Assembly: GCA_963745035.1 (NCBI GenBank)
Contig: CAVUVW010000013.1
Coordinates: 1,536,001-1,600,000 of the forward strand
Reading direction: 5' to 3'
DNA from: an uncultured delta proteobacterium
GTDB taxonomy: Bacteria > Desulfobacterota > Binatia > UBA9968
Length of the DNA stretch: 64,000 bases
Below the pieces are notes generated by a model that worked only from the letters and a program-made list of their open reading frames with translations, was not told the DNA's origin and ran no database searches. Positions 3,943 through 37,585 of the stretch are shown piece after piece (the first letter of the stretch is position 1; each line of letters opens with the position of its first letter). The position numbers and the translations under genes are program-made.

Positions 3943-3963
3943 GCCATTCTCCTGTTCTGCCGT

Positions 3964-9335: not shown

Positions 9336-9338
9336 CCG

Positions 9339-11643: not shown

Positions 11644-13682
11644 ATGCCGAGACTGCAAGGTACGAAGAAGTACTGCGCTCACGCGTTACGGCTTGTGACA
11701 ATCCTAGCTTGGCCCGTCTTACTGGAGGGGCAAACCACCGCGGGCTTGAGCGTTTCAATTACCGGTGCGAGGGTGGCGGCCGATCACCGCCCGGTTGTAA
11801 CCTTCAAACTGAACGACTCAAGGGGAACGCCGCTTGACGTTACCAATGTCGATGGGAACAGCCTCAAATTTACCATTGCCGTTATCAAGGAGGAGAAGAG
11901 CGGCGCGACGAACTATCACAACTACATCCTTACCAAAGTCAGCGGCAAGGAATTCGTCTTCCGAGGCGAACCCAAGCAACCGACGCTTGCCGAAACGCTT
12001 CAACCGCATTTCGACCAGGGCGGCACCGTGACCAAACTCAAACCCGGTCTGTTCAATTACACTTTCAAGACCGCGCTGCCGGCAACTTACGATCGTAATG
12101 CCACTCATGTCGTCGGCGCAGAGTCGACTCGCGAAAATGGCAGATACGTCGGCAATGCGCTTTTCGAATTCATCCCATTCGGCGGCAAAGTCAAAACCAG
12201 CCGGTCGGTCATCGATACCGCCTCATGCAACACCTGCCACGAACCCCTCAAGGCGCACGGCGGCACGCGGCACGAAGCGAGCTATTGCGCGCTTTGTCAC
12301 ACCTCGCAACTTACCGATCCGGAGAGCGGAGAAAACCTCGATTTCAAAGTTCTCGTCCACAGAATACATCGCGGCAAGCTACTGCCGAGCGTGCGTGAAG
12401 GAAAACCTTTTTTCACGGTGGGAGAAAATCAACGCGTCAGCGATTATTCGACGATCCGCTATCCGCAAGTGCTGATGACCGACGGAACGCACAAGGATCT
12501 GAGAAACTGTAATGCTTGTCACACGAGCTCGGCGCAGACCGACCATTGGAAGAGGTTTCCAAGCGTGGCCGCGTGCACTTCCTGCCACAGCAATGTTGAC
12601 CTGGCGACCGGCAAAAACCACAAGCTCGGACCGGCGGCCGACGGGACCTGCATCGGCTGCCATCCGCCGGACGGACCCGAGTTCGGCCCGTCGATTACCG
12701 GCGCGCACACGTTCCCTGGAAATTCAGCGCAACTTCCGGGTGTCGTCTTTGACATCTTGAAGATCACGGACAGCCAGCCGGGCAAGAATCCGCTGGTCAC
12801 ATTCAGCCTCAAAAACAAAAAGGGCGAGCCGCTCGATCCGACAAAGATGCCGAATCTCCGGCTCGTAGTTGCGTGGCCAACCACGGACTACAAAGTTGCA
12901 GTCGAAGAGGACGCCAGAAAAGCTCAGGCGGCGGGCAGCGGCGTGTACACGCTTCAGATTCAACTATACAATTCCTAACGACGCCAGCGGTTCGGGCGCC
13001 GTCGGTATCCAAGGGTTCACCTTCGTCGATCTGAAAAAGCCCAACGGCGAGACCATCAAGGGACAAAGAGACGTGGGATTCAACGTCGTCAAATACTTCT
13101 CGATTACCGATAAACAACCGGTAGAACGACGCAAAGCGGTCAAGATCGAAAACTGCAACGTCTGCCACTTGAAACTAGCGACCCATGGTGAAGCGAGGAA
13201 CAACAGCGAATTTTGCGTCATGTGTCACAACGCCAGCCAGAACCGATGGAGATAAGCGAAAGGCGGCCAAAGGCACCGAGCCCGCCGAGAATGTCCATTA
13301 CAAGAGGCTCATTCACCGGATCCACACGGGCGCAAACCTTGGAGAATCATGGATCGTGTACGGCGGTACCCCCGCAAAGCCTGGACCGATCGAGTTCGGC
13401 GACATCCGTTTTCCAGGCGATCGGAGAAATTGCGTCAAGTGTCACGTACCCGGCGCCAATGAATTGCCGTTGCCCGCGGGATTACTGGCGACGATCATTC
13501 CCCAAAAAGACGGTAGCACGACAGCGCTCCAGCCGATCACCAGCGCCTGTATCGGATGTCATACTCAAGATCACGCCAGGCTCCACATGGATACGATGAC
13601 CGCATCCAATGGCCAGGAAAGTTGCGTGACATGCCACGGCGCCGGCCGCACGTTCGCGGTGGACAAAGTGCATCAAAAATAG
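11644..13682 (+). CDS. OmcA/MtrC-family decaheme c-type cytochrome (frameshifts near 12955 and 13240)
   Basis: Ten CxxCH motifs in 5+5 layout (CNTCH, CALCH, CNACH, CTSCH, CIGCH; CNVCH, CVMCH, CVKCH, CIGCH, CVTCH), each set after a beta-rich domain; HGGTR and VHRIHRG motifs. Confidence 0.9.
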
Positions 13683-13809: not shown

Positions 13810-14000
13810 TCAATCCCTGATCTCGTACTCCCGCTCGTTCAAAATAATTTTCCCCGAGACCGGCATGCGTTTACGCATCGAGTTGACCGTGTGACAGCCC
13901 TTATCGGCGAGCTGCGCAACTTGAATAACCCTTTCCACCGGCGGAGCGGTCTTGATGTTAAAAAAATAGCTGAGCCCTCGCGCAGCTTGTGAAAAATACT
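13810..14000 (-). pseudogene. Duplicated 3' end of the OsmC-family gene (attachment-site copy)
   Basis: FSQAARGLSYFFNIKTAPPVERVIQVAQLADKGCHTVNSMRKRMPVSGKIILNEREYEIRD matches the C-terminus of 34807..35355; 13864-13943 is identical to 34861-34940. Confidence 0.9.
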
Positions 14001-14253
14001 CCATTTCGAGATCGTCGCCACTGCCGCTTTCGCCAGCGCCACGAGGCTTGGTCGGCGGCGCTATTGCTAACGGAGCCCACTTCGCTCATTGGCAGAATCA
14101 ATAGCGTCCGTGGCTCGGCGCGTCTCCAGCGTCAACGCCGATCTGGCTTAGCTTGAGACCGCTGAGAATCCTTTTTATGGAGCCCGTCCGTCAAGATTTA
14201 TAGCTTGCTTTCAATGGCCGTCCAAATATATTCTCACCCATGCGTGACGCGCT

Positions 14254-17200
14254 ATGATCTGCCCGCAGTGCCAATCCGAAAACTCTAATATTGTCGCCTT
14301 TTGCGACCAGTGTGGAACACAGCTGGAAGCACCCTGCCCACGGTGCGGCGAGCCAAATCGGCAAGGAGCCAAATTCTGCAGACGCTGCGGTCAAGCAATC
14401 GGTGAAACACCCGTCAGGTCTTCTCCCCTCAACGTCGGGACACCGGCACCCGATACCTATGTCCCAAAACACCTCGCTGAAAAGATACTGGCTTCCCGCC
14501 ACAAGCTGGAAGGAGAACGGAAACAGGTGACCGTTTTCTTTGCAGACATAAGAGGATCGACAACTTTAGTGGAGGGGCTCGATCCTGAAGAGGCTCAGAA
14601 GCTAATCGACCCGGTTCTGCGCATCATGATGGACGCAGTCCACAAATACGAAGGGACTGTGAATCTGGTCGCAGGCGATGGCATCATGGCGCTGTTCGGC
14701 GCACCTTTAGCGCATGAGGATCACGCGCTACGTGCATGCTATGCGGCGCTGGCCGTGCAAGAAGAGATGCGTCGCTACCGACAAGGGCTCGGCCAATCCG
14801 AAGAATCGGGCCTACACATCGGCGTGGGAATGAACTCTGGCGAAGTCGTGCTCCGTTCGATCGATACTGATCTCACCATCGACTACTCGGCTATAGGCTA
14901 CACTACGCATCTCGCAGCTCGGATGCAGGAGCTCGCAGGCCCGGGTATCGTTCTCATGTCGTCCACTACGCTGCGGCAAGTCGAAGGCTTTGTTCAGGTT
15001 GAATCCCTCGGTCCCGTGCAAGCCAAGGGTATTTCGCAGCCGTTCGAGGCTTATTCGCTCATTGGTACAACCTCCGCCCGCACCCGCTTCCAAGCTGGTG
15101 TGGGTCGTGGGTTGACACCGCTGGTCGGACGCAACGCGGAAATCGATATTTTCAACAAACTGGTCGAGCAAACCGCGGCGCGCCACGGCCAACATATTGG
15201 CGATGGTTGGCGAGCCCGGTATGGGAAAATCGCGTTTGGTCCACGAATTTACGCGACACCAGCTGCCCGCCGGCTGGCTCGTCTTGGAAGGCGCATCGGT
15301 GTCTTACGGCAGGGCTACCCCATTTTTTCCACTGATCGAAATGCTGCGCCGCTACTTTCAAATCATCGCCGGCAATGGACAGCAGGAAATTCAAGAGCGA
15401 GTGGTCAATTATGTTTTGGAATTGAGCAACATGCTCAAAGATGCCATTCCACCAATCCTTTCATTATTCGGAGCACTCCCGGAAAAAAACCATTCGCCGC
15501 CCTCCGGCGAGCCGGATTGGCTATCAAAACATCAAGATGTAGTCGAGATGGTCAAACGATTCGGCGCGATGGATCCACAACAGCGGCAGCGCCGTATCTT
15601 TGATGCGGTAAAGCGGGTACTTATCCGTGAGAGTCAGCGGCAGCCGTTGCTCATCGTTTTTGAGGACCTGCATTGGATCGACAGCGAAACGCAGGCATTT
15701 CTCGATGGCTTCGTAGAAAGTCTGCCCTTGTCGCAGATTCTTCTCCTGGTGGATTACCGCCCCGAGTACAGTCACTGCTGGAGCGATCGTTCATTCTATA
15801 GCCATCTTCACGTGGATCCGTTAAATCCCAGTAGCGCGGAAGAACTCTTGCAACACCTGTTGGGACGCAACCAGGACCTCCTGCCACTAAGGCAGTTATT
15901 GGCGGAACGTACCGTAGGAAATCCTTTTTTCGCAGAAGAGAGCGTGCGTTCTCTCGCGGAAGAAGGAGTTCTGCTGGGCGAGAAGGGGGCCTACCGGCCG
16001 AGCCTGAAAATTGATGAGATCCGTATCCCGAGCACCGTGCAAAACGTCGTGGCGGATCGTATCGACCGATTGTCTATTGCGGAAAAACATCTGCTGCAGA
16101 CCGCCGCCGTCATTGGCGTAATTGTTCCCTTACCACTACTTCGTGCTGTTGCCGGGTTGCCTGAAGATGAGCTGCAGGGTCAGCTTGCTCACCTCCAGGC
16201 CGCCGAATTTCTCTATGAATCAAACCTTTTCCCCCAGTTGGAGTACAAGTTCAAGCATGCTCTTACCAATGAAGTGGCCTACGGGGCTTTGCTTCACGAG
16301 CGCAAAACTTCTTTGCACGCAAAAATCGTGAGCGCGCTCGAAAAGAGCGTAACCGACAATTTGCGCGATCACATTGAAACGCTTGCTCATCACGCTTATC
16401 AGGGAGAAATTTGGGAGAAAGCCGTAGGCTATTCGTGGCAGGCGGGCGGAAAAGCCTCGCAACGTTCGGCGAATCAGGAAGCACGAGAATTTTTCCAGAC
16501 CGGTTTGAGGGCGTTGGAGCATCTTCCGCAGAGTCGCGCCAATCTGCAACTGGGCGTCGATCTTCGGTTAGAACTTCGCAATCCCCTTTATTTTCTCGGC
16601 GAGTTCGATGAATTACACCTTCGCCTACGTGAAGCCGAATCCATGGCGCAAAGACTTTCAGACGATCGTAGACTGGGACGAGTGGTCAATCTTCTAACCT
16701 CGTACTATGGCCTTGTGGGGAAGCACGATCGCTCCATCGAATTCGGGACGCGTGGCCTAAAAGTCAATCGAGGCGACGTGGAGCTGAGTACAGCTACCCT
16801 CTACTATATGGGCGCAGAATCCCATCTCGTCGGGCAATATGAACAAGCGATTGCCTTTCTCAAGCAAGCTCTCTCAGTCACGGAACTGGAGCGCTTCAAA
16901 TACGAACGATTTGGCACGGCATTTCCCTTATCGGTAAGCTGCCGAATTTGGTTAGCTCAATCGTCGGCTCAACTCGGGCGCTTCAAGGATGGTAAAGCGA
17001 CTGCCGGAACGCGATAGCAATCGCTAAAGAAGCCGTCCACAACTCCAGTCTTGCTTACGCTTATATCAGTCTGGGATATGTTTATCTCGTTCAAGGAAAT
17101 ATTGGTTCCGCGATAAAGGCATTAGAAACCAGTCATGAGATTTGTGGCACCAATAATATTCAAGTATTGATGCCTCACATCGGCTCAAATTTGGGCTATG

Positions 17201-17693
17201 CATACGCTCTCGCCGGACGCCTTGATGACGCTCTGCCCCTAATGGAGAAGGCCGATAAACAGTCGGAGCTGATTGGCCGTAAATCAGCATGGGCATTGCG
17301 GCTCGCTTGGCTGGGTCACGCAAGTTTGTTAGGGGGTCGGCTCAGCGCAGCACGAGAGCAAGCGGAGCGCGCCGTGGCTTTGGCCATGGATACCGGTGAA
17401 CGCGGAAATGAAGCGTGGGCGCGTAAGCTCTTGGGGGACGTTATCAAGAAAAATCATCAGGCCCCATAGAAGCCCTTACACATTACGCTGAGAGTATGGC
17501 ATTAGCGACAGAATTAGCCATGGGCCCACTTCAGGCACAAATTCACTTGAGTCTAGGACGTTTGCACCGTCGTGAGGATCAAATCGAGAAAGCCAGCGAT
17601 GAATTATCTATGGCTCTCACGTCTTATCGCGCGATGGGAATGTCTTTCTGGATAGACGCAGCGGAGCGCGAACTCAGCACTTTAGTTCATTGA
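14254..17693 (+). CDS. Double zinc ribbon + class III adenylate/guanylate cyclase + STAND/AAA ATPase + TPR protein (frameshifted)
   Basis: CPQC/CDQC/CPRC/CRRC; ERKQVTVFFADIRGST, GDGIMALFGAP, HLAARMQ; Walker A GEPGMGKS, Walker B LLIVFEDLHW, GNPFF, YKFKHAL; helical TPR tail. Confidence 0.9.
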
Positions 17694-17714
17694 CGATTAA
17701 AGAGGGCACTCGCC

Positions 17715-20700
17715 ATGATTGTTGAAACGCAGAAACAATCGAGCGTTGTTGCGCCAGCAGGGTCTCAAGTTACGCCCTCCAATCCTTTTATCGAATTTTC
17801 CAAGCACGATATCGAGCAGTCGATCGGCAGCCGGTTTCAACAAATAGTTGACCGAGATCCGTCGCGAATTGCAATTAAGACACGAGAACCGACTCACGAC
17901 CTACGGCGCGTTAAACAAAATGGCGAACCGGGTCGCCCATGCTCTTCGATCGGCAAGCGGTACCAGCAATGAACCCGTTGCGTTGTATGGAGGAAACGAT
18001 GTAAGCACAATTGCCGCGATCCTGGGCGTTGCCAAAGCCGGTAAAATTTATGTTCCTCTCGACAAGTCGTTTTCCGAAGCATGGACGAAGTTCATCCTTG
18101 AAGATACACGGGCAAAGATCGTACTTACCGGAAGTGGCGGGCCAGAGGCAATTAAACCATGGCTACGATCTGAACACATACTAATCGACTTCGACTCACT
18201 CGATCCCCATTTGAGCGAGGAAAATCCGGTTGGGACGGTTTCCCCCGACGATCTTTTACAGATTCTCTACACCTCCGGAACAACGGGCCAGCCGAAAGGA
18301 GTGATGGATAACCATCGCAACATGCTTCATAACACGATGAGATTGACGAACGTGGCGCATATTTCGCCAGATGACCGCATGACATTGGTGCGTCCGCCCA
18401 GCAGCGGCGGGGGGCTGTGTAATCTGTACCTGAGTTTACTGAACGGCTCGGCAATATACCCGGTAAACATTAAGCGCGTAGGATCGACAGCAATCGTGGA
18501 TTGGCTCCGGCACGAAAAGATTACAATCTTCCATTCCCGTGCAGCGAGTATCGTCGTTTTGTCCATCAACTGACTGCCGAAAACACATTTCCTGGTTTGC
18601 GCATCATTCGGGTGGGCAGCGGTCAGCTCTTCGACAAGGACGTGGAGTTATTCAAGCGCTATTTCCCCGACACTTTGCTGTTCCACACTTTTACGTGCAC
18701 GGAAATTCACATCTATCGAGTTCTTTTTCTGAGTAAAGATTCGCAAGTTCCCCGCGGCGCCTTGCCGGTAGGCTACGCAGTCGAGGATGTAGAAGTCTTG
18801 ATTCTCGACGATTCGGGGAACCCGCTCGGAGTAAACGAGATCGGCGAGATCGCGATTCGCAGTGCTCATCTATTCCGAGGGTATTGGAATAATTCGGCGT
18901 TGACGGATGCCGCATTTGTCGGGAGGCCAAATGACCACGGTGAGAGACTTTTTCATACCGGCGACTCCAGCACTACAGCTGGATGGCTGCCTTGAATTTT
19001 TGGGGCGTAAAGATTTTCATACTAAAGATCCGCGGCCACAGGATACACGCAGAGGAAGTTGAGTTGGCGCTGCAACGGTTGGCGGAAATAGGTCAGGCTG
19101 TGGTGACGTCGTACAAAGACGATTATGGCGATGAGCGGCTAGTGGCGTATGTTACACCATCCGGCAGCGAGTTTCCGACGACAAGTGCAAATCCGCAGCT
19201 CGCTGAAAGAATCGCTCCCGGATCATATGCTGCCAAGTAAATTTGTATTTCTTGAGAGCTTGCCATTAACTGCTAGCGGCAAAATCGATCGTCGGGCATT
19301 ACCAAAACCTAACTTACAACGGCCCAAACTCGTCACCCGTTTCAGCGCACCAACCACGCCGGTAGAATCCGTGCTCGCCCAGATCTGGGCAGAAACTTTG
19401 GGCCTAACCAGCGTGGGAGTCCACGATCTTTTTTTCGATCTTGGCGGCGACTCAATAATCGCCTCGCGAATCGTTTCGGCTATCGGCCGAATTTTTCCCT
19501 GGGAACTTACGTTGGCGGAGTTTTACGACACTTGCACCGTGGCACAGACTGCGGAATGGCTGAATCGAAAAGCACCGAGTCCAGAACAGGCGGAGAGAGT
19601 TGCCCTTTGTATTTAAGAGTGCAGTCGATGTCTCCCGAGGAAGTCGAAACCGTACTAGCCGATGAACGGAACAAACGACAAAGACTAACGAAAGCCCAGC
19701 ATCTAGAAAAGGCTAGCGCATTGAACCAAAGAGATGAGCTATATATTTATCTTCTAGAGCGAGAGGGATTCGAGCGACAGCCCAAATTTACCGTCCCACA
19801 CAGGGAAAATCATGATGCTCCGCCTCCTTTGTCGTTTGCCCAGGAACGTTTCTGGTTTCTAGATCAATTCGAGCACGCCCATCCTATCTATAACGGTTGC
19901 AAAGCCGTTCGGCTCATTGGCCGACTGAACATCGAGGTTTTGCAGGAATGTCTTAATCTAATCGTGCACCGGCATGAAGTTCTGAGGACTACCTACCCTG
20001 CTCGGGATGGTAAGCCGATCGCGCGCCTTATACCCTCCTGTTCCATCGAAATTCCGATTGCAGACTTCGGAGAACATCCACAAATTCGAGCTACCCTACA
20101 TAGTTCAAGAATTGACTCGAAAAGAGTGGCTGCAGCCAATAAATCTCGCGGAAGAGTTACCAATCCGTTCGCGATTGTTCAGATAGACGATGCACACTTT
20201 GCTCCTCTTGACGCTGCATCAAATCGCCTCTGACAGTCAATCCGTGCCGATATTTTATCGCGAACTATGGACCGCATACAAAGCTAAATTGCACGGCAGA
20301 GATCCTCAGTTGTCGGCGCTGCCGATTCAATATGGCGACTTCGCCAGTTGGCAACGCCGGCGTGTTTTAACTGACGGTTTTAAGGCGCACCGTGAATACT
20401 GGCGTCAGCGACTGAACGGATCGCCGCCAGTTTTGAACTTGGCTGCCGACAAGCATCGACCTCACGTGCAAAGCTTTGACGGATCGAGGTTGCCAATTCA
20501 TTTCACTCAGCTGATGCAGCAAAAACTTAAGGTATTGAGTGGAGAGAACGGAGTTACGCTCTTTGTAACGTTGCTTACGGCATTTAAGACTTTGCTCTAC
20601 CGTTATACCGCTCAGACGGATGTCCTAGTCGGCTCTCCCATGCTGAATCGCGGACTGTCCGAATTGAGAAAACTTGATCGGGTCGTTTCTCAATACTCTT

Positions 20701-23700
20701 AGTGCTGCGCACGAACTATGCGGACAACCCCAGTTTTCACAAGACGTGCTCCGACGAGTCCGGAAGACTTGTAGAGACGCATTTGAGCACCAAGAATTTC
20801 CGTTCGAAAGGATAGTTCGCGGAATTACGACCCCAGCGCGACTTCAGCGAGACCCAATTTTCAAGTCATGTTCTCTTTCCAAAACGCGTGTTGACACCGG
20901 AGCTTAAACTGGCGGGACTTCGATCCGAAGCAATCGAAGTTGACAGCGGCATGACAAAATTCGATCTAACCCTGTCGCTTGTTGACAAGGAAAATGAAAT
21001 CGGCGGCCATGTTGAGTACAGCACCGACTTATTCAATCGCAGAGACGATCGAGCGTATGGTGGGACATTTTCAAACGCTGCTTGAATCCATTGTTATCAA
21101 TCCTGCCCAATCGATCGCCACATTACCCATACTCACCGGAGCCGAACCGCGCCCGGATAGCGCATCGAATTGAACGACAGAACCGCCGAGTACCCCAAGG
21201 ATAAATGCATCCACCATCTTTTTGAAGCACAAGTCGAGCGCAGCCCGCAAGCCATCGCCTTGGTATTTGAAGATAAACAGATCAACTACCGAGAGTTGAA
21301 TCGCAAAGCTAACCAGCTAGCGAATCACTTAATCACGTTCTAGGCATCGGCCCGGAAAAATTCGTCGGCATTTTCGTCGAGCGCTCCATCGAGATGGTGG
21401 TTGGGTTGTTGGCGATACTCAAAGCGGGCGGCGCCTATGTGCCGTTAACACCAGCGTATGCCTAAAGAGCGGCTGCGTTTCATGCTGGAAGACTCCCAGG
21501 CATCGGTACTGCTCGCCACGAAAGACATAATTAGAAGCGAGAATTGAGGATTGAGGGTCACGCAGTTGCCAGGGAGATAACGAACGGTGGATATTCGGCG
21601 ATCGAAAATTTCCATCCTCCACCCTCGACCCTCGATCCACAAGCTCCAGAGTGGGTTTGCCTCGATCGCGACTTGGCCAAGTATCGAGCAACAAAGCAGT
21701 GACAATCCATCACTTACACTCCAGTCTCACAACCTTTGCATACGTGATCTACACCTCCGGCTCTACTGGGCAGCCGAAGGGAGTGCAAATCGAACACCGC
21801 TCGGTCATTAATTGCCTTTCCTGGGTTTTCGGCACACAGATTAACCTTACGCTGCAGGATACGTGGCTGGCAGTCACGACGATTTCTTTCGACATCGCCG
21901 CTCTGGAGCTTTATTTGCCGCTAATCACAGGGGCAAAGCTTATTTTGGCCAATCGCGACGGGGGTATCGACGCTGTTCAGCTACTCGCGCGAATCAGAGC
22001 TTCGGGAGCGACGGTGATGCAGGCGACTGACCATCGATGTGGAAGCTTTTGTTTCCAACGATTGCGAAACGTCCCGGCAAATTCACGATCCTCTGTGGCG
22101 GCGAAGCGTTATCGCGTCAGCTAGCCGACTGCCTATTGGATGGCGGCGCAGATTCCGTTTGGAATCTCTATGGACCCACGGAGACGACGATCTGGTCGGC
22201 GATCTACCGAGTTGAACCCAGTGATCGACCCGTTTATATCGGGCGGCCGATCGCCAATACGCAGATCTATATTCTCGATAACTACCTGCAGCCCGTGCCC
22301 ATCGGCGTACATGGTGATCTCTATATCGGCGGCGACGGCGTGGCGCGCGGTTATCTGAACCGTGCCGAGTTAACCGCGCGGAGAAAGATTTTGTTCGTTA
22401 TCCGTTCAGCGACGATCCCTGATGCACATCTCTACCGAACCGGCGATCGCGCTCGTTATCGTCCCGGCGGCAATATCGAGTTTCTCGGGCGCAGTGACCA
22501 TCAAGTCAAAATCCGCGGCCGCCGGATTGAGCTTCGGCGAGATCGAAGCCGCGATGGTTCGACATCCGTCGGTCAAAGAAGCCGTCGAGATAGTAGCGGC
22601 TCATGATCGTGGCTCGTCTGAGGAAAATGAATTGATAGGTTATGTCGTCAGCCGTCACGACCCCGCGCCGACCGTCGGCGAACTGCGAAGCTTCCTCCAG
22701 GAAAAAGTTCCTGAATACATGTTCCCGTCGTTGTTCTTATCTTCTCGACGCCCTACCGCTCACTCCCAACGGCAAGGTTGACCGCAATGCCCTGCCGCCA
22801 CCTGACGCAAACAAACTTACAATCGACAAAGGAATTATTGAGCCGCGCAGCGAGTTGGAGGAACTGGTCGCCCAAGTCTGGCGAGAAGTGCTCCAAAATC
22901 GACAAATCAGTATCCACGACAACTTCTTCGAACTCGGCGGACATTCCCTCCTGGCTACTTCAGTTGCCGTCGCGCGCTTGCGCGCGAACTTCAATATAGA
23001 TCTCCCTCTTCGCAAGTTATTCGAACTGCCCACAGTAGCGCGATTGGCGGATCATCTGAAAGTGTCCGCCGGCATGACCGGGGCCTTCGCATCCCGCCAA
23101 TAGTGCCGGTACCCCGTAATCGACCCATCCCGTTGTCATTCTCTCAGCGTCGGCTTTGGTTCTTGGAAAAGCTTGATCCTGGGTTACCGGGTTATAACAT
23201 GCCAGCGGCGTATGAAATCAAAGGCGCGTTGAATATTTCGGTCTTGCGGCAAGCACTAAACGAAGTCACTAGTCGGCACGAATCTTTGCGTACGCGTATC
23301 GTCGAAGTGGGCGGCCATCCCTATCAAGAAGTCGTTTCCACTTTAGATTTTACCTTAAGAGTCGTAGAGCTTACTGATCTGTCCCCACCGCTCGCTAGGC
23401 TCGAGGTCGAGCGGCTGGCGAGCCAAGGATGCGTGGGCACCGTTTGATTTAGCAACGGCCCCGCTGTTGCGGGCGAAACTCTTGCGATTGAGTGAAAACG
23501 ACATTGCTTGCTGATCCTCGAATTTTGGCCAGTATCGTGTCGGATGGTTCCTCCGTGGTTGTATTCTTCGAGGAATTGGCAACGCTTTACGGATCATTCC
23601 TAGAGGGAAAGCCTTCTCCGCTCAATCCCCTCCTAGTGCAAATATGCAGATTACTCCGTTTGGCAAAACGAAATGCTTCAAGAAGGCCCCGAGATTAGCT

Positions 23701-26377
23701 TGCAGCTTCAATATTGGCGGAAGCAACTGGAGATGTGCCAGTCTTCGCTAAATCTGCCGATCGACCACCGCCGTCCTTCGTTGGTGAGCTACCGCGGGGC
23801 GAAGCAGTCCGTTGTGCTTTCCGCCGAGCTTACCAGACGGCTCAGGGAAATAGGCCGGCAGGAAGGCGCCACAACGTTTATGATTTTGCTCGCGGTTTTT
23901 ATCTTGCTGCTCTCGCCATGGCTGGCCAGCGAGATCTCATCGTGGGGGCTACGATCGCCGGCCGAAACCAGTCGGAAATCGAGAGATCGATAGGATTTTT
24001 TATTAACGTTTTGGCGCTTCGAGCGGAAATTCCGGCTGACATTACGTTCCTTGAGTTTATACAGCAGGTAAGGGAGACCTGCCTTGATGCGTATACTCAT
24101 CAAGACTTGCCTTTCGAAAAGATCATCGAAAAAGTCAAACCGGAACGCGAATTCGGCCGCCAACCGCTGGTGCAAATGTTGTTCAATTTGGCCGATACCT
24201 CAGAGCGGCTTCTCGCGCTGCCCCGCTGCGACGTCGTCAAGTTTGCGCCGTTCGCGCTCGCGGCAAAATATGAACTCGTGTTGTCTGCTCCCGAAGTCGA
24301 CGGGAAAATCCAATTGAATATTGTCTACAATACCGAGCTTTTCAGTGAAAGCCGGATCATTGCCATGCTGCGCCAATTTGAGTTCCTGTTGTCTCAGGTT
24401 TCATAGAACCCAACAGAAAGACTTGATCGATTATCGCTCGTCGCTCCATCTTCATGCAGCGATATTGCCGGACCCTAGGAAGGCTTGGGAGAAACCTGGC
24501 AGGGCCCGTGCATGACACAGTAGCGAGCATGGCTCTGCCGCCCCTAATCACCTGGCAGTTATCGATACGAACGGGTATTGGACCTACGCGGAGATCGACT
24601 CATAGCCGTCTGATTACCGCTTACCTGGCAGATATGGAAATTCAACCTCGAGACTTGGTCGCGGTCTATGCTCATCGAAGCGCGACCCTTGTGCCGATCT
24701 TACTAGGGATTTTGAAAGCGAGTGGGGTCTTCCTTATTCTGGATCCGGCATACCCGCTGCTCGGTTAATGGATCTTTACGTGTCGCTCGGCCAAGGGGCT
24801 GGATAGAAATGGCGGGGGCCGGCCCCCCGGCCAAGGAGCTGCCGATTACATCGACAAACTTGATTTACGCTGCCGGATGATCGTGCCAAATAGCAAACAC
24901 CAATGGCTAATCTGCTCCGGGAGATTCACCTCAAAAGGCATTTCCGGAAATTCTCGCAGACGTCCTGCATATGTCGCATTTACCTCCGGGGAGACTGGGG
25001 AACCCAAAGGGGTGTTATGCTGCCACGGGCCGATGACCCATTTCTTACCGTGGCAAGAAACGAGATTCATCACCGCTCGAACGATCGATTCTGTTTCTGT
25101 CTGGCCTTGCCTACAATTACTTGCAGCGCGAAATATTTACCGCGTTGTGGCTAGGAGCGACGGTATGTCTTCCCGGCCGGAAATCGTGGAATCCCGGCTC
25201 ACTAATAGATTGGTTACAGCAAAACGAAATCACAATTCTTCACCTCACCCCGGCTTTAGCGGAATTCTTAGGAACGTTCACGGGCCAGCTGTTAAACTCG
25301 GTGCGGCGTATTTTCTGTGGCGAGGATGTACTTACCAAACAAACGCTGGCCGTCCTCCGAAAGCTTGCCCCAACGCCAAGATCACAAATCTGTATGGCGT
25401 GACAGAGACCCAGCGTGCATCAGGATACTTCGAGATTCCAGAGGGGATTTTATCGCAAAACAGATGCAAAGGAAATTGTTCCACTAGGACGGGGGGTTGA
25501 AGATGTTCAGTTCCTGTTGTTAACACCGAATGGAAGATTGACTGGGATTGGCGAAATCTGCGAACTGTTTGTCCAGTCCACACCTTGCGTTGCGATATAT
25601 CAACGATGAGCAGCTCGCTCGGGAAAAATTTTTGGTCAATCCATTCGGAACGGCGGAGACCGATCGGATGTTCCAGCCGGGGAGATAGGTCGATATCTGC
25701 CAAATGGAGATGTCGAGAGGGTGGGACGCAACGACCACCAAGTCAACATCCGCGGTTTTCGCGTCGAACTCGAAGAAATTGAAACAATCCTAAAGCAGCA
25801 TCCAGTCGTCACCGACGCCGCCGTGATGATGCCGCCTTCCGAGACGGCGCCTGTAACAAAGAGGGCGAGATCTAAACCGTGCGAGAACCTGGTTGCATAC
25901 ATAGTTTCGAACGAAGAAGACTCCCAAAGCTTAAGGGACCTAGTTCATTCATATGTCCGGCTCGCCTCCCCGATATATGGTGCCTTCACGGCAAATCTAT
26001 TGCAAGCGATTTCCGCTAAATCCCAACGGCAAAGTAGATTATCGCGCGTTATCTGCGATTCCTCGACCCGAGGTTGAACTTTCCACGTCATCCATTGCGC
26101 CACGAAACCCTGTTGAAGCAAAAGTGTGTAATATTCTCGCTGAAGTGCTTGGCCAAACGAAGATTGGAATGGATGAGAACTTTTTCCGCCTCGGCGGACA
26201 TTCCTTGCTCGCAGTTCAAGCGGTCGTGCGTATCCAAGAGTCATTCGGCATTACATCGATTTGCGCGTGTTTCTCGATGCGTCACGATAGCGGCGCTCGC
26301 ATGGGAAATCGACCTTCGACTAAAAGCAAAAAGCGCGGCGCCAAATGAACAAGATAATGGCCGAGAGGAGATTGAGT

Positions 26378-26382
<5 letters not shown>
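17715..26382 (+). CDS. NRPS 1: A-T-C-A(Gly)-T-C-A-T with C-terminal REEIEL docking tail (heavily frameshifted)
   Basis: [30 protein letters not shown]; LSFAQERFW; [28 protein letters not shown]; LSFSQRRLW; [30 protein letters not shown]. Confidence 0.85.
21015..22959 (+). repeat. ~1.9 kb direct repeat, copy 1 (C-domain tail, A domain, half T domain)
   Basis: From AGTACAGCACCGACTTATTC to GGCGGACATTCCCTCCTGGCTACT, near-identical to 27773-29699. Confidence 0.9.
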
Positions 26383-31209
<4,827 letters not shown>

Positions 31210-31217
31210 CCGCGGTT

Positions 31218-32939
31218 ATGGGGGCTATCACTATGTTACACGCAATCTTGTACGGAATCGTGATGATTGTTTTGGTGGCATGTTCCGTGCCAAAATCAGC
31301 GACCTGGTTGCCGGACGAGCGTACCGGACTAGGTACGGGAGAGGGATCTTTGTTTTTCGGCAAGAGGCTTCCGATAATAGGTACGGGAAAGGGATTTCCG
31401 CTTTTCGATAACAGGCTTCTGATAAAAGGTATCGAGCGCGTAATTAAGCGGCCGCTCGACACGCATAATGTATCGAGCGGAGAATTTGATCTCTATTATT
31501 TTATTCGCAGGCCCGTTAACCGGAGGGGGGCTAAAACTGTTCTATTCATCGCGGGCGGGCCGGGGTTTTTTAATCCCGGACCCTTCGAGGATTTGACGAT
31601 GGCTGATTTCTTGCTCCAGAATGACGAATACAACGTGGTGCACTTTCATCCGCGAGGCGCAGGATTCAGCCAAGTTCCGCCGAACAATTATTATGACAGG
31701 TTCCTCAAGACTTCTTACGTTGTAGAAGATATCGAATCGATTCGCGAGGACTTAATCAGACTGGGATTTCTCGATCAGGACGGTCGATGGGACGCAGTTA
31801 TCGGCTACAGCTACGGTACCGTTGTGGCACAACAATATGCGGGCACGTATCCACATAACGTCAAAAAAATGCTTCTAATTGGAGTCCAATCGCGGCATCT
31901 GTTTGAGAGTACCAATGAAGCCTTTTCGCAAATTATGCTTGAGATTCGTGATACAAATCGCTATACGCTCGCGACAATTCTTCAGTCGTCGGCGTTTGAC
32001 GACATTCCGCAAGACGATAAACAACATGTTGTCGATCGTGTCTTCGGTATCGGTGAAACTGAGGGGGATTTTCAAAAGGCCGAAAGAATTTTCGGCGGTC
32101 TCCCTTTCCTGATTGCTTCTTTCTGTGAACCGGCGGTTGTGCAGGAACTAAAAAACTCTGGATTAGACCGATTTAGCAAGAAATTCTTTATCGCCCTTAG
32201 GGGATTGCGTCAAGTTGGTTGGAAGCCAACGTCTCCGGATCGGCGTGCTCAGATAGAATACGCGGGACAAATTTTGCGTGAGATTGGCGGGATTACGCCA
32301 GAGGGTGTTGACTGTTCGAGCACCCCTGGACTTGATGATACCGGATCATCGGATCGCGTTTTCTACATCGTAACGACATATGACGGTATAAATATAAGGT
32401 TACTGGACGCATTGCAGAAGAGCGAAAAAAAACACGTGCTTGACGCGCTTCATAGAAGTGGCGGCGAAGCTCATTTTACCAAGCGTATCAACAAATTTCT
32501 TAACAAGGTAGGAATCGCCGATGATGAAAAAATCGTACCGTGGAACCCGGCGAAGCATCAATATGATGGACCGACGATGATTTTGCAGGGAAGCGCTGAT
32601 ACCGTAGGCGCGGGGGGAGCGGCCGAGCACTTTTTCAGCAATGCCCTTACGGGCGTACGTGTACTTATAAAGTATCCAGGCATCGGACACGAGTACCGGC
32701 TTCCGTTAATGTTTCTTAGATCGCTGCCTAAAACTTTTCCGAGTTCCGACCTGTGCGAGTTGGACGATGAAATCCGAGGAATTCGAGATTGCCTAATTTA
32801 TTCTTTTCTAAAAATGAGCCCTAAGGACTTTATCGATTCTTGTGTTAACAAGATTCTGCCTGTCATTATTGAGGACAAAGCGAGTGTGTTCTTCAAGGAC
32901 TCATCTAGCTCCAAGACTATTGCTGGCACATGTCCGTGA
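31218..32939 (+). CDS. Alpha/beta hydrolase, S33 (prolyl aminopeptidase/TAP-like), probable lipoprotein
   Basis: AGGPG oxyanion loop, HPRGAGFS, GYSYG nucleophile, QGSAD Asp, PGIGH His; hydrophobic N-terminus ending VLVAC; starts 8 bp after NRPS 2 stop. Confidence 0.75.
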   Translation: MGAITMLHAILYGIVMIVLVACSVPKSATWLPDERTGLGTGEGSLFFGKRLPIIGTGKGFPLFDNRLLIKGIERVIKRPLDTHNVSSGEFDLYYFIRRPVNRRGAKTVLFIAGGPGFFNPGPFEDLTMADFLLQNDEYNVVHFHPRGAGFSQVPPNNYYDRFLKTSYVVEDIESIREDLIRLGFLDQDGRWDAVIGYSYGTVVAQQYAGTYPHNVKKMLLIGVQSRHLFESTNEAFSQIMLEIRDTNRYTLATILQSSAFDDIPQDDKQHVVDRVFGIGETEGDFQKAERIFGGLPFLIASFCEPAVVQELKNSGLDRFSKKFFIALRGLRQVGWKPTSPDRRAQIEYAGQILREIGGITPEGVDCSSTPGLDDTGSSDRVFYIVTTYDGINIRLLDALQKSEKKHVLDALHRSGGEAHFTKRINKFLNKVGIADDEKIVPWNPAKHQYDGPTMILQGSADTVGAGGAAEHFFSNALTGVRVLIKYPGIGHEYRLPLMFLRSLPKTFPSSDLCELDDEIRGIRDCLIYSFLKMSPKDFIDSCVNKILPVIIEDKASVFFKDSSSSKTIAGTCP

Positions 32940-32970
32940 GCGAAAGCCTTTCGGAGTGACATTTTTACAG

Positions 32971-32999
32971 TTGACAAGGATAGAGCAATTCGTTATGCG
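32971..32999 (+). promoter_or_regulatory. Putative sigma-70 promoter for the small ORF
   Basis: TTGACA-17 nt-TATGCG; perfect -35, weak -10. Confidence 0.35.
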
Positions 33000-33034
33000 T
33001 AAGAAAACTTTCTTTGCGTGAAAGGAGCAACGTT

Positions 33035-33277
33035 ATGGGATTCGCCGCTGGCTTGTTAGCTGAGTCCCCCGCTGAGGAGGCCGTATTCTGGCAAACTTGG
33101 AACGCCATGCCTAGGCAAGAACGGCGAACGTTTCTCAAGCGGCTCGGAAGGGAAAGGGGCAGGCTCATAAATAATAGGGAGGCGCGACAAGAGCTAGCCA
33201 AATTCGTGAGGGAGAATGTGTTTCAGAGGCTGACCGACCGCGGTACTCGCGGTACTAGGGGCAAACGACGACGATAG
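33035..33277 (+). CDS. Small basic hypothetical protein (80 aa)
   Basis: AAGGAG RBS before ATG 33035; MGFAAGLLAESPAEEAVFWQTWNAMP...RGTRGTRGKRRR. Confidence 0.55.
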   Translation: MGFAAGLLAESPAEEAVFWQTWNAMPRQERRTFLKRLGRERGRLINNREARQELAKFVRENVFQRLTDRGTRGTRGKRRR

Positions 33278-33456
33278 CTTCTCAGAATCGCATTTTTCGA
33301 GATCTCCATACTGCTAATCGAACAGTCCAGCTCAGGAGAATCACCGACTGCTTCCTCTCCAGCCGCGTGGCTCCTCCGTGTTGCGTTCGTGAACAAGATC
33401 TTCGATAAGAGAAAATTACCCTTCTAAAAACGCGTAGGTCGGTGTCACAGACGTCA

Positions 33457-33730
33457 AGCGTCGAGTAGAATCGACGCTATTGACCGCGTTGAGTTGTTCC
33501 AGTGATGCTTCTTTCGGGCGTCTTCGACCATACACCGTTCAATTTCACCAACGACTTTGTCGATGGTTTTGCCGTCAAACGAACTCTCTTTTTTTCACTG
33601 GTTGTCTCGATGCTCTGGCTCGGCAGATCTAACTGATCGCTACCTATCGTCAGGCCTCTGATCGATGCGACGAGCCGTTTCACTTCATTTTCTAGTTGCC
33701 GCCCGTTTCCCAGGCACGAGCAATTTTTAA
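33457..33730 (-). pseudogene. Remnant of a sigma-54-dependent activator (AAA+ C7 motif plus Fis-HTH start)
   Basis: LGNGRQLENEVKRLVAS resembles WPGNVRELEN; shifted frame IDKVVGEIERCMVEDARKKHHWN resembles the HTH_8 lead-in; no N-terminal part. Confidence 0.6.
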
Positions 33731-34140
33731 CTATAGCGCCATTCCCTTTTAAGTTGCTCACCTTAATGTCCGGCGCCGTGGACTCCGCCGTGATGTCGCG
33801 TAATGCAAGCCTGCGGGTGCATTCGGCTTTGCGCCGAAGTTAGCGAAAGCTCGTTTTGCGTCGGGACGGCTACATGATACTTGGATCTCACATTGTTTCT
33901 CCATCGCTCGTCGTTAGACGACTGCAACCCAAGATGTACTGACACGCCTACGTTAGACCGGAGGGTGTCAACAAAAGTGGCGGTCCGTAAGCTTAGTTGA
34001 CGACCGATTACGTTTTCACTGGATGAACCGCATTTTCCGGTACCCAAGCTATTGAAAACACGCTGCGATGGTTCTTCATTGTGCGCCCAAAAGACTGGCC
34101 TCCGCTTTGCTCCGCGAAAGTTTCAGAGGAGTTTAAGCCG

Positions 34141-34611
34141 ATGCCCAAAACAATTCTTGTTGTAATGAAATTACAAAAGAATGTTGAGCTTTTGCTGCGC
34201 CGACTGGAAAGAGCAGTAAAGCCCGGCAATCGAATCGTGTTTCTCTTCGAATACCAGCAGGATGTTCCCACTTGGCTGTTGGCCCAGGTCACAGCGCTGC
34301 AAACGGGCTGCGACACGGGAATCGCATGGCAGGAGCAGAGGGCATGGCTTTCATGGGACGAGCAAAAAGCACGTGCGGAAAAAAATATCGGCGAACCGGC
34401 GCGCCGACTATTCAGCCGGATCAGGGTGGAAGTCGTGGTGGATCTTTATTCGCGCTCTCTGAGTGCTATCGTGAAGCGCTATTTGGAAACTGGCGAGATC
34501 GGGCTAATTCTGGTGACGACCTCCTCCTGGCTGGAACGGCTGAAGATCGTGCCGATCAGCGTAAGGAACTGGCTTGTTCGGCAGCTGCCCGAGCAATTCT
34601 CTTTGCGCTGA
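34141..34611 (+). CDS. Hypothetical protein, weakly universal-stress-protein-like
   Basis: KTILVV beta strand, RIVFL, VEVVVDLYS...IGLILV pattern resembles the USP fold. Confidence 0.45.
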   Translation: MPKTILVVMKLQKNVELLLRRLERAVKPGNRIVFLFEYQQDVPTWLLAQVTALQTGCDTGIAWQEQRAWLSWDEQKARAEKNIGEPARRLFSRIRVEVVVDLYSRSLSAIVKRYLETGEIGLILVTTSSWLERLKIVPISVRNWLVRQLPEQFSLR

Positions 34612-34640
34612 TCGGCCGGTTAACCCTAATTGGCCGGTCA
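34609..34640. terminator. Hairpin between convergent genes
   Basis: TGATCGGCCGGTTA-ACCC-TAATTGGCCGGTCA stem-loop with G-U pairs. Confidence 0.45.
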
Positions 34641-34806
34641 CCCTAAACCCAATCTCTTCAATTTCTTTGCCAACCCTTGGCGGCTAAGGCCCAGCGCTTG
34701 AGCCGTTTTTTGCTTGTTCCAATGATGCTTTTTCAGAGCGTCTTGGATAATGCGCCGTTCGATTTCACCAATGACTTCGACGAAACTCGCCACGCCGCCA
34801 TCTATC

Positions 34807-35355
34807 CTAGTCTCTAATCTCGTACTCGCGATCGTTGAGAAGAAACTTGCCGGTAACGGTCATGCGTTTACGCATCGAGTTGACCGTGTGACAGCCCTTA
34901 TCGGCGAGCTGCGCAACTTGAATAACCCTTTCCACCGGCGCAGCGGTTTTGATGCTGAAAAGATAACTCAGTCCCCGCGCGGCCCGTGAGAAATCTTTGA
35001 GCGGAAACTTACCGGTCAGATCGTAGGTCATGCGCAGATCCATCTCGAGATCGTCCAGGAGAACCTCCGCATTTGCGGCCAGGCGTTTGAACTGGCTGAA
35101 CATGCAAAAACCGATCGAGGCGATGAAATATTGGAGCGCCGACGGGCGCTTCCCCGCCTGTTTTTTGAAGTTCTCGTCGTCGCAATAAACCGTGTAGTCT
35201 TCGGGTTGCTCGATCTTGACCAGCGCTTCGTTTAGACGAATGAGCGCGCGCTGCTGCAGGAGATAGCCGTCCGAGTCACCGGAACCATGCTCCCGCTCTT
35301 CCTCATAAACGACCCGAAACTTTCCGAGATCGATGGTTCCCGGAACGGTGGGCAT
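34807..35355 (-). CDS. OsmC/Ohr-family protein
   Basis: PSALQYFIASIGFC ... ADKGCHTVNS two-Cys pattern; starts 3 bp after the Mo-enzyme gene. Confidence 0.75.
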   Translation of the reverse strand: MPTVPGTIDLGKFRVVYEEEREHGSGDSDGYLLQQRALIRLNEALVKIEQPEDYTVYCDDENFKKQAGKRPSALQYFIASIGFCMFSQFKRLAANAEVLLDDLEMDLRMTYDLTGKFPLKDFSRAARGLSYLFSIKTAAPVERVIQVAQLADKGCHTVNSMRKRMTVTGKFLLNDREYEIRD

Positions 35356-35358
35356 GAA

Positions 35359-37585
35359 TCACTTCGCGCCGTGCAGCGCTTGGTAAATCTTTTCCGCCGT
35401 GATCGGCAGGCTCTTGATGCGCACGCCGCAGGCGTCTTCCACCGCATTGGCGATCGCCGCCGCCGTCGGGATATTGCCGGTCTCGCCGATCGGCATGCTG
35501 TCGTAAGGCCCGGCGCCGTGCGGCTCTTGAGTCACCGAGCCTCTGAATACGGGGACATCCTTGATCGTCGGGATTTTGTATTCACCGAAATGAGTCGTTG
35601 CGACTTTGCCGTCGTTGATGATCACTTCTTCCATCAAGGTGTAGCCGATGCCGGTCATGCTGGCGCCTTCGATCTGCCCCTGATGCATCAGCGGATTGAG
35701 CACCGTGCCGGTGTTATGGGTCGAAGTGAATTTCTTGAGCTCGACCTGTCCGGTTTCCGGATCGACTTCCACCTCCGCCACCTGGACGCACATGGAGGCC
35801 GCGTGGATTTTCGAATTGTCGTTGAAGGTCGCATCGACGGCGATCGGCGAGCCCTTGGCTTTGACGATTTCGCCATAGGTCAAGCGTCTTTCCATGCGCG
35901 GGTGCAGCGCTGCGCCTTTGGCCAAGGTGATTTGATCGGGCGCCGCGCCCATTTGCTCCGCCGCCGCCTGCTTTATCGCTTCGACCGCTTTGAGCGCCGC
36001 CGCGTAACCGGCGTTGCCGTAAACCCGCGTCGCCCGGCTGCCGCCGACACCGGTGTCTTTTACACCGGTCTGGGTGTCCAGTTGCTGAGTCTTGATCTGG
36101 CTAAGCGGGATCTTGAGCTCTTCGGCGACGATTTCGCTGAGAATCGTGTAGGTGCCCGCGCCTTGATCCGCCATCGCGGAGGAAATCGTCGCAACACCGC
36201 TCTCATCGAGCGAGATCGCTACCGTTCCGATGCCCCCGGCTGGCGTCCACTGTACTAGAGCAACGCCGCGCCCGACGTTCTTCGGCTTTGGCCGTTGGTA
36301 GCCCGAATCCTCCAGCGCCTTTTTCAGCGTCTCGTCGGTCTTGATGTAGCTGTACTCCTCGCCGGTAGGATCGATATCGCCGTCGTGCATGAAATTTTTC
36401 TGCCGCAGCTTGATCGGGTCCATACCCAGTCGCTTCGCGATCAGATCCATCTGGCTCTCGTTGGCGAAAAATCCCTGGGGATCGCCGGGCGAGCGCATAT
36501 GGCCGCAGGGAATTTTGTTCGTATAGACCATATGCTCTTCGAGGAATACATGGGGGATCTTGTAAGGCCCCGCCGACAGGTGCGGGCCGTTGAGAAAAGC
36601 GTTGGGCTTGAACGCGCCGTAGGCGCCGCTGTCGAAGATGAAATTCATGTGATGAGCGACTAGCGTCCCATCCTTTTTCACGCCGGTCTTCACTTGAATG
36701 ATCGAAGCATGCCGTGGATTTCCGGCGACAAACTCCTCTTCGTAGTCCATCACCAGCTTAACCGGGCGGCCGGCTTTTTTGGACAGCAGATACACCACGG
36801 CGAGATCCATGAAATCGCCCTTGCCGCCGAAATCGCCACCGATGTAGACGGGATTGAAGTTGAGCTTCTCCTGCGGCAGCTTGAGCGCGTTGGCGACCTG
36901 CTCGCGCACGCCGTACGGCACCTTGCTGCACGACCAGAACTCCGCCGAGCCGTCCGGCGCGGTGCTGACGACACAGGAGTGCGGCTCGATGTAGCTTTGA
37001 TGAACCACCGGCGTGGTAAATGTGTTTTCGACGATGATGTCGGCTTGGCGAAAACCGGTTTCCAGATCGCCCTTGCCCCAAGTCACGTAAACAAAATCAT
37101 TGGTCGGCTCTTTTAGGGGCTTGGGCAACCCCTTATAGGTAGTCACCTCTGGATGAAGCAATTTCGCGCCGGGTTTGAGCGCCTCGACCGGATCGAGCAA
37201 CGGTTGGGTTTCTTCGTATTCTATTTCGATTAGATTGAGCGCCTCCTCGGCGATAAGCTCGTCGTCCGCCGCCACCGCCGCCACTTTCTCCCCAATAAAT
37301 CGCACTTCGCCGTCCGCCAGAATCGGCATGTCGTATAGCCGCCGGCCGATTTTCAAGCCGGTACAGTCTTGGCCGGTGATCACCGCGCGCACGCCAGCAA
37401 GCGCCTCTGCTTTACTGGTGTCGATCCGCTTGATCTTGCCCGAAGGCGATCGGGCTGCGCAGCAGTTTCCCCCACACCATTCCCGGCACCGTGATGTCGA
37501 CGGCGTACTTCGCCTCGCCGCTGACTTTCAGCTCGCCTTCGACTCTGGGAGTTGGATTGCCTACGACTTGTTTCGACGATGCCAT
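35359..37585 (-). CDS. Xanthine dehydrogenase family molybdopterin-binding (CoxL-like) subunit (frameshift near 37440)
   Basis: KVSGEAKY, LLRSP, VRFIGEKVAAV, IGGDFGGKG, DQGAG, GGSR, VEVDPETG, GQIEG, IGE, AIANA. Confidence 0.9.

Follow-up and report, generated by a model that had tools for sequence, protein, structure and literature searches.

How does a gene island of 20.8 kb come to lie directly downstream of an intact protein-coding gene, with a second copy of that gene's 3' end on its far side, when no integrase can be recognised around it? The question is raised by a 64,000-nucleotide stretch of DNA from an uncultured delta proteobacterium of the Binatia (GenBank assembly GCA_963745035.1, contig CAVUVW010000013.1, positions 1,536,001 to 1,600,000; the whole stretch is called the window below, and positions are counted from its first letter). 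The gene encodes a protein of the OsmC family, the island (14005-34806) carries a nonribosomal peptide synthetase (NRPS) cluster, and the two copies of the gene end share a core of 80 identical base pairs. The answer that we favour, tentatively and a little short of calling it probable, is that the island entered by a reciprocal homologous crossover inside this core, either as a circle in the manner of Campbell or as linear DNA by ends-in insertion. The island itself appears to be a flexible genomic island without a recombinase of its own.

The direct repeat and its identical core

A repeat search of the window gave a two-copy direct repeat of 184 nt at 85% identity (13814-13997 and 34811-34994), with a spacing of 20,997 bp, and no inverted repeats around the island. 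Both copies are read on the minus strand and their similarity stops at the two stop codons. In an ungapped comparison, 13864-13943 (the left copy of the core) and 34861-34940 (the right copy) agree at 80 of 80 positions, and all 28 mismatches fall among the other 104 positions. The right copy spans the region of the conserved active-site cysteine of the OsmC-like protein; the core as such is unstranded. These observations bear out what the initial annotation of this DNA had reported, namely the 80-bp identity at that distance and flanks that have diverged and still encode a similar peptide. The flank differences are indeed mostly synonymous: between the full gene and the fragment, the proportions of synonymous and nonsynonymous differences (pS and pN, Nei-Gojobori) are 0.91 and 0.15 left of the core, and 0.66 and 0.10 right of it. 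A core with zero differences sits between flanks that differ at saturating synonymous levels, and in the repeat it is the sole stretch long enough for RecA-type exchange.

As an empirical control, the longest identical run was determined for all 136 pairs of 17 tail sequences. The next-longest run was 50 nt, in a pair of 94% identity, and the remaining three pairs of 80-90% identity had runs of at most 26 nt. When the 28 mismatches were placed at random, a run of at least 80 was obtained in 2 of 1,000,000 trials. The 80-bp identity far exceeds chance or the conservation of the encoded peptide. Thus bracketed by direct repeats with an identical core, and matched by an empty site in relatives (see below), the element also displays a trait of the microcin H47 island type: long imperfect direct repeats with identity segments and no integrase inside.

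The right copy of the repeat belongs to the intact OsmC-like gene (34807-35355, minus strand, 182 aa), which lies directly downstream of a gene for a molybdopterin-binding subunit (MoCoBD). Its predicted product scores above the curated cut-offs of Pfam OsmC PF02566 (2.3e-9, 38 bits against 27.5) and of NCBIfam NF041052 'OsmC-related (seleno)protein' (95.9 bits against 95), by which we assign it to the OsmC/Ohr family. The NF041052 cut-off is barely reached, and the conserved position is a Cys in the window copy, with no TGA codon. The left copy belongs to a fragment, OsmC' (13810-14004, minus strand), that comprises the last 64 codons; 13944-14004 is of the island type, and 13810-13863 carries a common type of tail, unlike the tail of the full gene.

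Upstream of the fragment lies a scar (approximately 14005-14095, minus strand), made up of a short OsmC piece, the joint of a 45-bp deletion and a frameshifted relic of the 3' end of AhpC. Three-frame translations, an alignment to locus L016 of a relative and a search with an AhpC query gave the same order in the window and in L016, that is, OsmC tail, 45-bp internal deletion, a few OsmC codons and the frameshifted AhpC 3' piece. This AhpC'::OsmC' junction is shared almost base for base by the two, which indicates that it was formed once. Short database proteins carry it as well: 27 were found, and among the 16 that were fetched the junction is explicit in five and partly visible in two more. 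All seven have a tail of the L016 type, and one of them sits on a 572-kb contig. The homology arm appears, then, to travel with the island and not to be a fresh duplication of the target. The island had previously been thought to bring in roughly the 3' 190 bp of a foreign allele; an arm from a diverged allele is what we find, but it is not a clean 3' piece, given the 45-bp deletion and the AhpC relic.

For the recombinase searches, stop-to-stop open reading frames (ORFs) on both strands were scanned with Pfam, and those at the right end of the island also with NCBIfam and PHROGs. No integrase, recombinase or transposase family was matched by the 49 ORFs of the non-NRPS parts of the island, by the 95 ORFs found on the two strands of the NRPS region or by the 43 ORFs of at least 150 aa in the rest of the 64-kb window (Pfam), nor by the right-end ORFs of the island (NCBIfam and PHROGs). 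The only matches in these scans were an HTH_8 relic and the domains of the NRPS, the regulator and the hydrolase. A tyrosine or serine recombinase of its own, of the kind carried by prophages, integrative and conjugative elements and integrative and mobilizable elements, is found neither in the island nor in the 64-kb window, and the earlier statement that no recombinase is recognisable holds across all three profile collections. A related island described below likewise gave no recombinase in 81 ORFs that cover about 20 of its 21.9 kb. In relatives, a Pfam scan of 82 ORFs downstream of OsmC at nine loci returned no OsmC-targeting integrase; it returned metabolic genes, AhpC, a sigma-54 activator (L006) and one IS200-like Y1 transposase (L013), and an integrase lies beside OsmC in none of 17 loci. 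The L013 transposase (3550-4500 of that locus) is fused to a DnaA-C-like helix-turn-helix (HTH) and lies directly downstream of OsmC.

Empty sites and a sister island among relatives

One genome per species was scanned with the OsmC protein, which yielded the 17 loci. Fifteen of them are labelled as Candidatus Binatia or (uncultured) Deltaproteobacteria / Syntrophobacter metagenome-assembled genomes, one as Verrucomicrobiia and one as Syntrophobacter sp. SbD2; the close relatives are metagenome-assembled genomes. OsmC orthologues are at 66-84% identity in 15 loci, the pairing of MoCoBD with OsmC is conserved across related loci, and the gene content farther downstream of OsmC differs by lineage. 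At L001, L003, L004 and L007 the site is empty and the order is OsmC-AhpC/TSA-CoxG-GMC oxidoreductase; at L011 OsmC is followed, after about 2 kb, by CoxG-GMC, which brings the empty sites to five of the 17 loci. The initial annotation had interpreted the island as an insertion and recommended inspecting osmC orthologues for alternative cargo, and the relatives offer both the empty site and downstream content that varies by lineage. It had also considered that two ancient paralogues lacking any empty-site allele would speak against insertion; with five empty loci at hand, this does not apply. Among close relatives, then, both the presence of an island and its cargo vary at a fixed backbone position, as in flexible islands.

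Two further loci deserve mention here. The L017 contig ends inside OsmC, at residue 36, and L017 is the closest relative of L002 (94.1% in MoCoBD); the contig end may be an assembly break at the variable region. In L015, a 365-nt direct repeat (11059-11423 and 12408-12773, 75-82% identical) consists of the AhpC 3' end and downstream sequence and brackets an insert of about 1 kb, which has an ORF of the 23S rRNA intervening-sequence protein family and no recombinase; the pattern resembles that of the window on a smaller scale.

A sister island is present in MFD08691, where L002 and L016 lie on one contig with a 1.9-kb gap between the two loci, and where the full OsmC gene and the fragment are about 22.1 kb apart. 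The gene order is that of the window (hydrolase-like gene, NRPS, TPR/AAA/cyclase gene, fragment), and the AhpC'::OsmC' junction and the 45-bp deletion are the same. Its left flank, that is, the fragment tail and CoxG, is L003/L008-like. When the backbones are compared, the window and L002/L016 are 87.5% identical in MoCoBD, 84% in the first 350 nt of OsmC and 83% in CoxG. L001, whose site is empty, is at 91.5% in MoCoBD and hence closer to the island-bearing L002 than the window is. The flanks of the sister island are discordant, the CoxG of L016 being closest to L003 and the MoCoBD of L002 to L001 and L017. Which genomes have the island is not predicted by backbone similarity, as measured in MoCoBD.

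A sliding comparison of the window with L016 revealed a module (13944-16400, unstranded) with sharp ends, one at the core and the other inside the AAA_16/TPR gene. Identity is 96-100% over 13944-14700 and 94-99% over 15000-16400, with a patch of about 81% in between (14700-15000, within the cyclase domain) that looks like a mosaic recombination tract. Right of 16400 it is about 45-55%, and left of 13944 it is 76-83%. The left end of the shared tract lies at most 2 bases from the right edge of the 80-bp core, and the segments of the fragment match L016 at 51 of 54 positions right of the core, at 62 of 80 in the core and at 38 of 51 left of it. Since 2.5 kb at 94-100% identity contrasts with 87.5% in MoCoBD, about 2.5 kb would have moved recently between species-level lineages. 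The high identity of the left 2.5 kb, together with the closeness of L001 and L002, points to lateral movement or precise loss. Sharp tract ends, mosaic tails and an island-adjacent similarity that is discordant with the backbone are again what flexible islands display.

The fragment tails provide a second line of evidence. From the core outwards, the window fragment is about 76% identical to the sister fragment, and the differences are nearly all synonymous (dN/dS about 0.05). For the core and the sequence downstream of it pS is 0.72 and pN 0.11, and right of the core pS is 0.16 (Nei-Gojobori). Tail differences that bear the mark of purifying selection indicate that, before their union with the scar, the two tails belonged to working OsmC genes of different lineages; neutral drift of a relic after the shared scar had formed would not be expected to give such values. 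A comparison with 111 full-length alleles of 182 aa adds to this. The closest alleles have 2-10 differences in the first 116 aa and fall into two types in the last 17 residues: the tails of P0149, P0150 and P0151 agree with that of the full gene, with 0-2 differences over these residues, and those of P0152, P0154 and P0156 are of the common type, with 6-7 differences from the full gene and 2-5 from the fragment. P0123, from the short-protein search, behaves like the common-type alleles. The break between the tail types coincides with the left edge of the core, and in all lineages variability and mosaicism within the gene peak in the tail.

A possible crossover and its rivals

Taking into consideration what is directly observed, namely (i) the repeat, (ii) the empty site in relatives, (iii) the shared scar, (iv) the change of ancestry at the core and (v) the absence of recombinase genes, we propose the following course of events. 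At its left end the island would carry, as a permanent scar, what is left of the 3' part of another lineage's OsmC gene, and this relic may serve as a portable homology arm. A single reciprocal crossover between the relic and the resident OsmC gene would have taken place within the 80 identical bp, which are the presumed crossover interval. The incoming DNA may have been a circle, inserted in the Campbell manner, or linear DNA inserted by the equivalent ends-in route, and the exchange would depend on RecA-type functions of the host. In this way the island would land downstream of a gene that is still intact, composed of the resident 5' part, the core and the last 17 codons borne by the island, and the 3' end of the resident gene would be displaced by 21 kb onto the scar, the fragment then being made of scar, core and the resident's last 17 codons. 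By the reverse reaction the island could leave again.

One such event would account for both chimeras, the ancestry change at 13944, the signature of selection in the tails, the allele dimorphism and the lack of a recombinase. Of the homology-driven Campbell integration proposed in the initial annotation, the insertion, the reciprocal chimeras and the missing recombinase stand; the composite scar and the lack of a conserved attachment (att) site call for corrections to it. The mechanism seems to us plausible and testable.

Several observations weigh against this proposal. In the sister island, the longest exact match between full gene and fragment is 14 bp and no core is present; moreover, its full OsmC gene resembles that of L001 over the entire length, and the homology to L001 extends 136 bp beyond the stop codon, up to a sigma-54 activator relic. 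A sister island with no core, and with a gene that remains L001-like past its stop, would not derive from a crossover at the same place, so that the history of these islands must have involved other events. The same core is not used by related copies, as both the 14-bp match and the right junction 136 bp past the OsmC stop indicate; this argues against a fixed att site, and the 80-bp core does not appear to be a conserved one. Only about 2.5 kb (13944-16400) is recently shared with the sister island, the remainder being at most about 70% identical: the NRPS is at about 70%, the hydrolase at 30-38% in amino acids, with right ends that are unrelated to each other. At 13944, the boundary could also mark where a later import of 2.5 kb into an old island came to its end, the core having arisen by a separate conversion; sequence alone does not tell a crossover point from a later gene-conversion tract. 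For 80 identical bases to be present in deeply diverged alleles before the event, heteroduplex repair or earlier rounds of exchange are needed. When the arms of 51-54 nt, which are too short for a firm assignment, were compared with orthologues, the best matches of the fragment were 38-41 of 51 and those of the full gene 27-36 of 51 across all; the OsmC tail is variable everywhere, the other orthologues having means of 64-74% in this comparison. The tail type of the full gene is common to the three closest alleles and could be native to that clade. Lastly, either the NRPS cargo is dead or the consensus is poor there.

Part of this evidence has led us to weigh an older origin, which we consider unlikely, though not to be dismissed lightly: the island and its scar would be old and would have been inherited, or exchanged together with the flanks, a later import of about 2.5 kb would have covered 13944-16400, and the core would be a separate, short tract of ectopic gene conversion. 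A sister island without the core is what such a history would leave, and the 81% patch at 14700-15000 has the look of an older, diverged background showing through a mosaic import. The shared tract ends on the right where homology collapses, at 16400, and its left end falls within the last 190 bp of homology, so that its meeting with the core is a weak coincidence. The identities of the NRPS (about 70%) and of the fragment tail (about 76%) are comparable to those of backbone genes under weaker constraint, among them the transglutaminase gene (71-77%), and OsmC tails in the population are mosaic, with breakpoints around the conserved core. However, the fragment tail left of the core is not of the full-gene type, which conversion from the resident gene fails to explain, and its pS of 0.72 and pN of 0.11 against the sister fragment are unlike neutral decay since a shared scar. 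At least two independent events with abutting boundaries would be required, and sequences at about 73% identity would suffer from the same shortage of uninterrupted identity as the crossover that we prefer.

Site-specific integration of a non-autonomous, H47-like island, with an att site in the OsmC tail, exchange inside the core and a recombinase supplied in trans, would also give rise to the reciprocal chimeras, which are the product of any Campbell-type event. Precedents are the microcin H47 island (PMC3191183) and e14 in icd, which leaves the displaced 3' pseudogene icdC (PMC13626634). We nevertheless judge it improbable, since no integrase was found beside OsmC in 17 loci or in the 64-kb window, and since a sister island with no shared core and with a different right junction implies that there is no conserved att sequence. 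The possibility that the identity or the juxtaposition is an artefact, produced by consensus building or polishing over related strains in a metagenome, draws on the NRPS, with its approximately 47 frame switches in 13.25 kb and none in the adjacent hydrolase gene, on the 41 indels against 58 substitutions between two module copies, a ratio more like consensus error than natural decay, and on the fact that the close relatives are metagenome-assembled genomes. Yet the full layout of gene, island and scarred fragment recurs in a second species, whose genome was assembled independently, an 80-bp repeat is an unlikely cause of a misjoin in the 1.97-Mb contig of the window, the edges of the core are sharp and flanked by 28 well-resolved, frame-keeping differences, and the flanks and the 13944-16400 module are largely free of frameshifts; we therefore find this explanation very improbable. 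Least credible of all, to the point that we give it almost no weight, is a pair of ancient paralogues, one of them decayed, with no insertion. The saturating synonymous divergence in the repeat flanks would suit such a pair, but empty-site alleles occur in five of 17 loci, the fragment is fused to an AhpC relic with a deletion common to another species, and the presence or absence of the island is discordant with the MoCoBD similarity matrix.

Returning to the crossover inside the core, a bolder extension, for which we see a rather slim chance, is an integrase-free Campbell cycle. The island would be a mobile biosynthetic cassette whose sole mobility device is the pseudo-3'-end of a conserved host gene that it carries. 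The stretch that codes for the catalytic cysteine of OsmC would give the island a landing site in many species; insertion there, with the gene kept intact, and removal via the same repeat would be the work of host RecA, with chimeric alleles remaining, and the dimorphic last 17 residues would be the population footprint of repeated insertion and loss.

If the crossover reading is true, a large secondary-metabolite cluster of an uncultured, Binatia-type soil lineage spreads and is lost without any dedicated mobility gene, a host-gene relic acting as the portable homology arm. Such islands are invisible to tools that seek integrases, transposases or tRNA targets, and they would explain the mosaic, unusually diverged ends of genes beside variable regions. 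A prediction follows, that the type of the OsmC tail tells whether an island is present or absent.

Cargo, neighbourhood and known systems

The GC content of the island is 0.517, below that of its flanks (0.573 and 0.597), a comparison that had been suggested at the outset. Its leftmost gene (14254 to about 17690, plus strand) encodes a regulator of the class III adenylate cyclase / AAA_16 / TPR type (STAND-type, by Pfam) with at least one frameshift, near 15195, as a comparison of its frames with L016 indicates. The family is very large; 8000 candidates were scored and the best database match is 84% identical. On the question of whether the cyclase/AAA module circulates widely as a mobile cassette, the ceiling of 84% among database proteins supports neither answer.

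The NRPS gene (17787-31010, plus strand) consists of four modules with collinear condensation (C), adenylation (A) and thiolation (T) domains, in the order A-T, three times C-A-T, and C. Its reading frames are not intact, every domain being split over several frames; module 1, for example, is read in frames 3,1,3,1,2,3 when compared with the intact 1154-aa module of L016. The NRPS of the sister island (L002/L016) is likewise fragmented, except for that one 1154-aa ORF. The module copies with the 58 mismatches and 41 indels are 21012-22963 and 27770-29702; most of the indels are of one base, and their ratio to substitutions looks like consensus error. That the frameshifts keep to the NRPS would suit decay, of an unusually indel-rich kind, or a strain-variable segment with low coverage. 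Dead or badly polished, the cluster should be counted as biosynthetic potential only after a check of the reads. A literature search on Binatia NRPS islands returned nothing specific. Outside the island, the GMC oxidoreductase gene is apparently split into an N-terminal part (10270-10863) and a C-terminal part (9274-9903) in different frames, and an ABC_tran_2 gene is apparently split as well (40128-40715 and 40890-42404).

Next to the NRPS lies an intact alpha/beta-hydrolase gene (31218-32939, plus strand, 573 aa, zero frame switches). The approximately 1.8 kb to its right gave no family matches except two 3'-end relics of sigma-54 activators: a degraded one with the AAA lid and HTH (33496-33719, minus strand), and a second one with an intact HTH_8 (34640-34778, minus strand; Pfam 1e-14), which starts 29 bp after the OsmC stop and forms the right edge of the island. 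The two relics are in direct orientation, about 1 kb apart, with about 75% identity over 86 nt; none of the intervening ORFs has a family match, and the pair is another partial 3'-end duplication that brackets an insert. In L006, an intact sigma-54 activator of the relic type lies 1.8 kb downstream of OsmC; in L002, a relic starts about 146 bp after OsmC.

On the left, the backbone anchor of the empty site is the CoxG gene (10970-11422, minus strand). Between it and the fragment, in the place of AhpC, are two genes for MtrC/MtrF-like multihaem cytochromes (11644-13682, plus strand), with no homologue in any of the 17 loci; they are a separate, lineage-specific replacement at the same hotspot. 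On the right, the anchor is the MoCoBD gene (35359-37392, minus strand; aldehyde oxidase / xanthine dehydrogenase family), followed by tRNA-Asn (37677-37752). As the real target the tRNA gene was rejected: it belongs to the conserved backbone of several relatives, and homology to them is unbroken from OsmC across it. The target is a protein-coding gene, as had been claimed from the start.

Among known systems, flexible islands such as O-antigen and capsule loci, with hitch-hiking flanks such as gnd, are exchanged by homologous recombination in conserved flanking genes. The window island resembles them in its variable cargo between the anchors MoCoBD-OsmC and CoxG-GMC, in the discordant similarity of its flanks and in an OsmC anchor whose island-facing end is its most diverse part and is mosaic. 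Flexible islands are usually swapped by a double crossover in both flanks, which leaves no duplicated gene end. In the window, by contrast, the island has direct repeats on both sides and brings a remnant of the anchor gene with it, in keeping with a single crossover or ends-in insertion. Homology-facilitated illegitimate recombination, known from natural transformation, uses microhomology to join the far end, and the anchor is not duplicated. Here too there is a single homologous anchor of about 200 bp and no dedicated recombinase, but the two ends of the window island fall in one homologous stretch, and the products have a reciprocal appearance.

The microcin H47 island of E. coli is an integrase-less secondary-metabolite island of a similar size class (13 kb, against 21 kb here) with extensive imperfect direct repeats (PMC3191183), and long imperfect repeats flank the window island as well. 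The H47 island recombines in segments of identity between the repeats, independently of homologous recombination (PMC3191183), and from this recombination-independent mobility a trans-acting site-specific enzyme has been inferred. The mobility of the H47 island was established by experiment, whereas the window island is known from its sequence alone, and its repeats derive from a coding gene and have diverged with purifying selection at work. Also unlike H47, no identity segment is present in the sister of the window island, a lack that is in better accord with homologous recombination.

The closest parallel in layout is found at the E. coli icd gene, where e14 and phage 21 replace the 3' end of a coding gene, keep the gene intact and leave the original end behind as icdC (PMC13626634); loss of e14 yields a chimeric icd gene (PMC13626634). 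In the window, too, the insertion lies at the 3' end of a coding gene, a substitute end is supplied and the original end is displaced to the far side. The source text describes e14 as a prophage with its own site-specific recombination system (PMC13626634), whereas the Pfam and PHROGs scans of the window island gave neither a recombinase nor a phage gene; further differences are that the window fragment is a composite AhpC'::OsmC' scar and that the related island lacks the core. The window has the layout of e14 in icd but lacks a recombinase encoded by the element itself.

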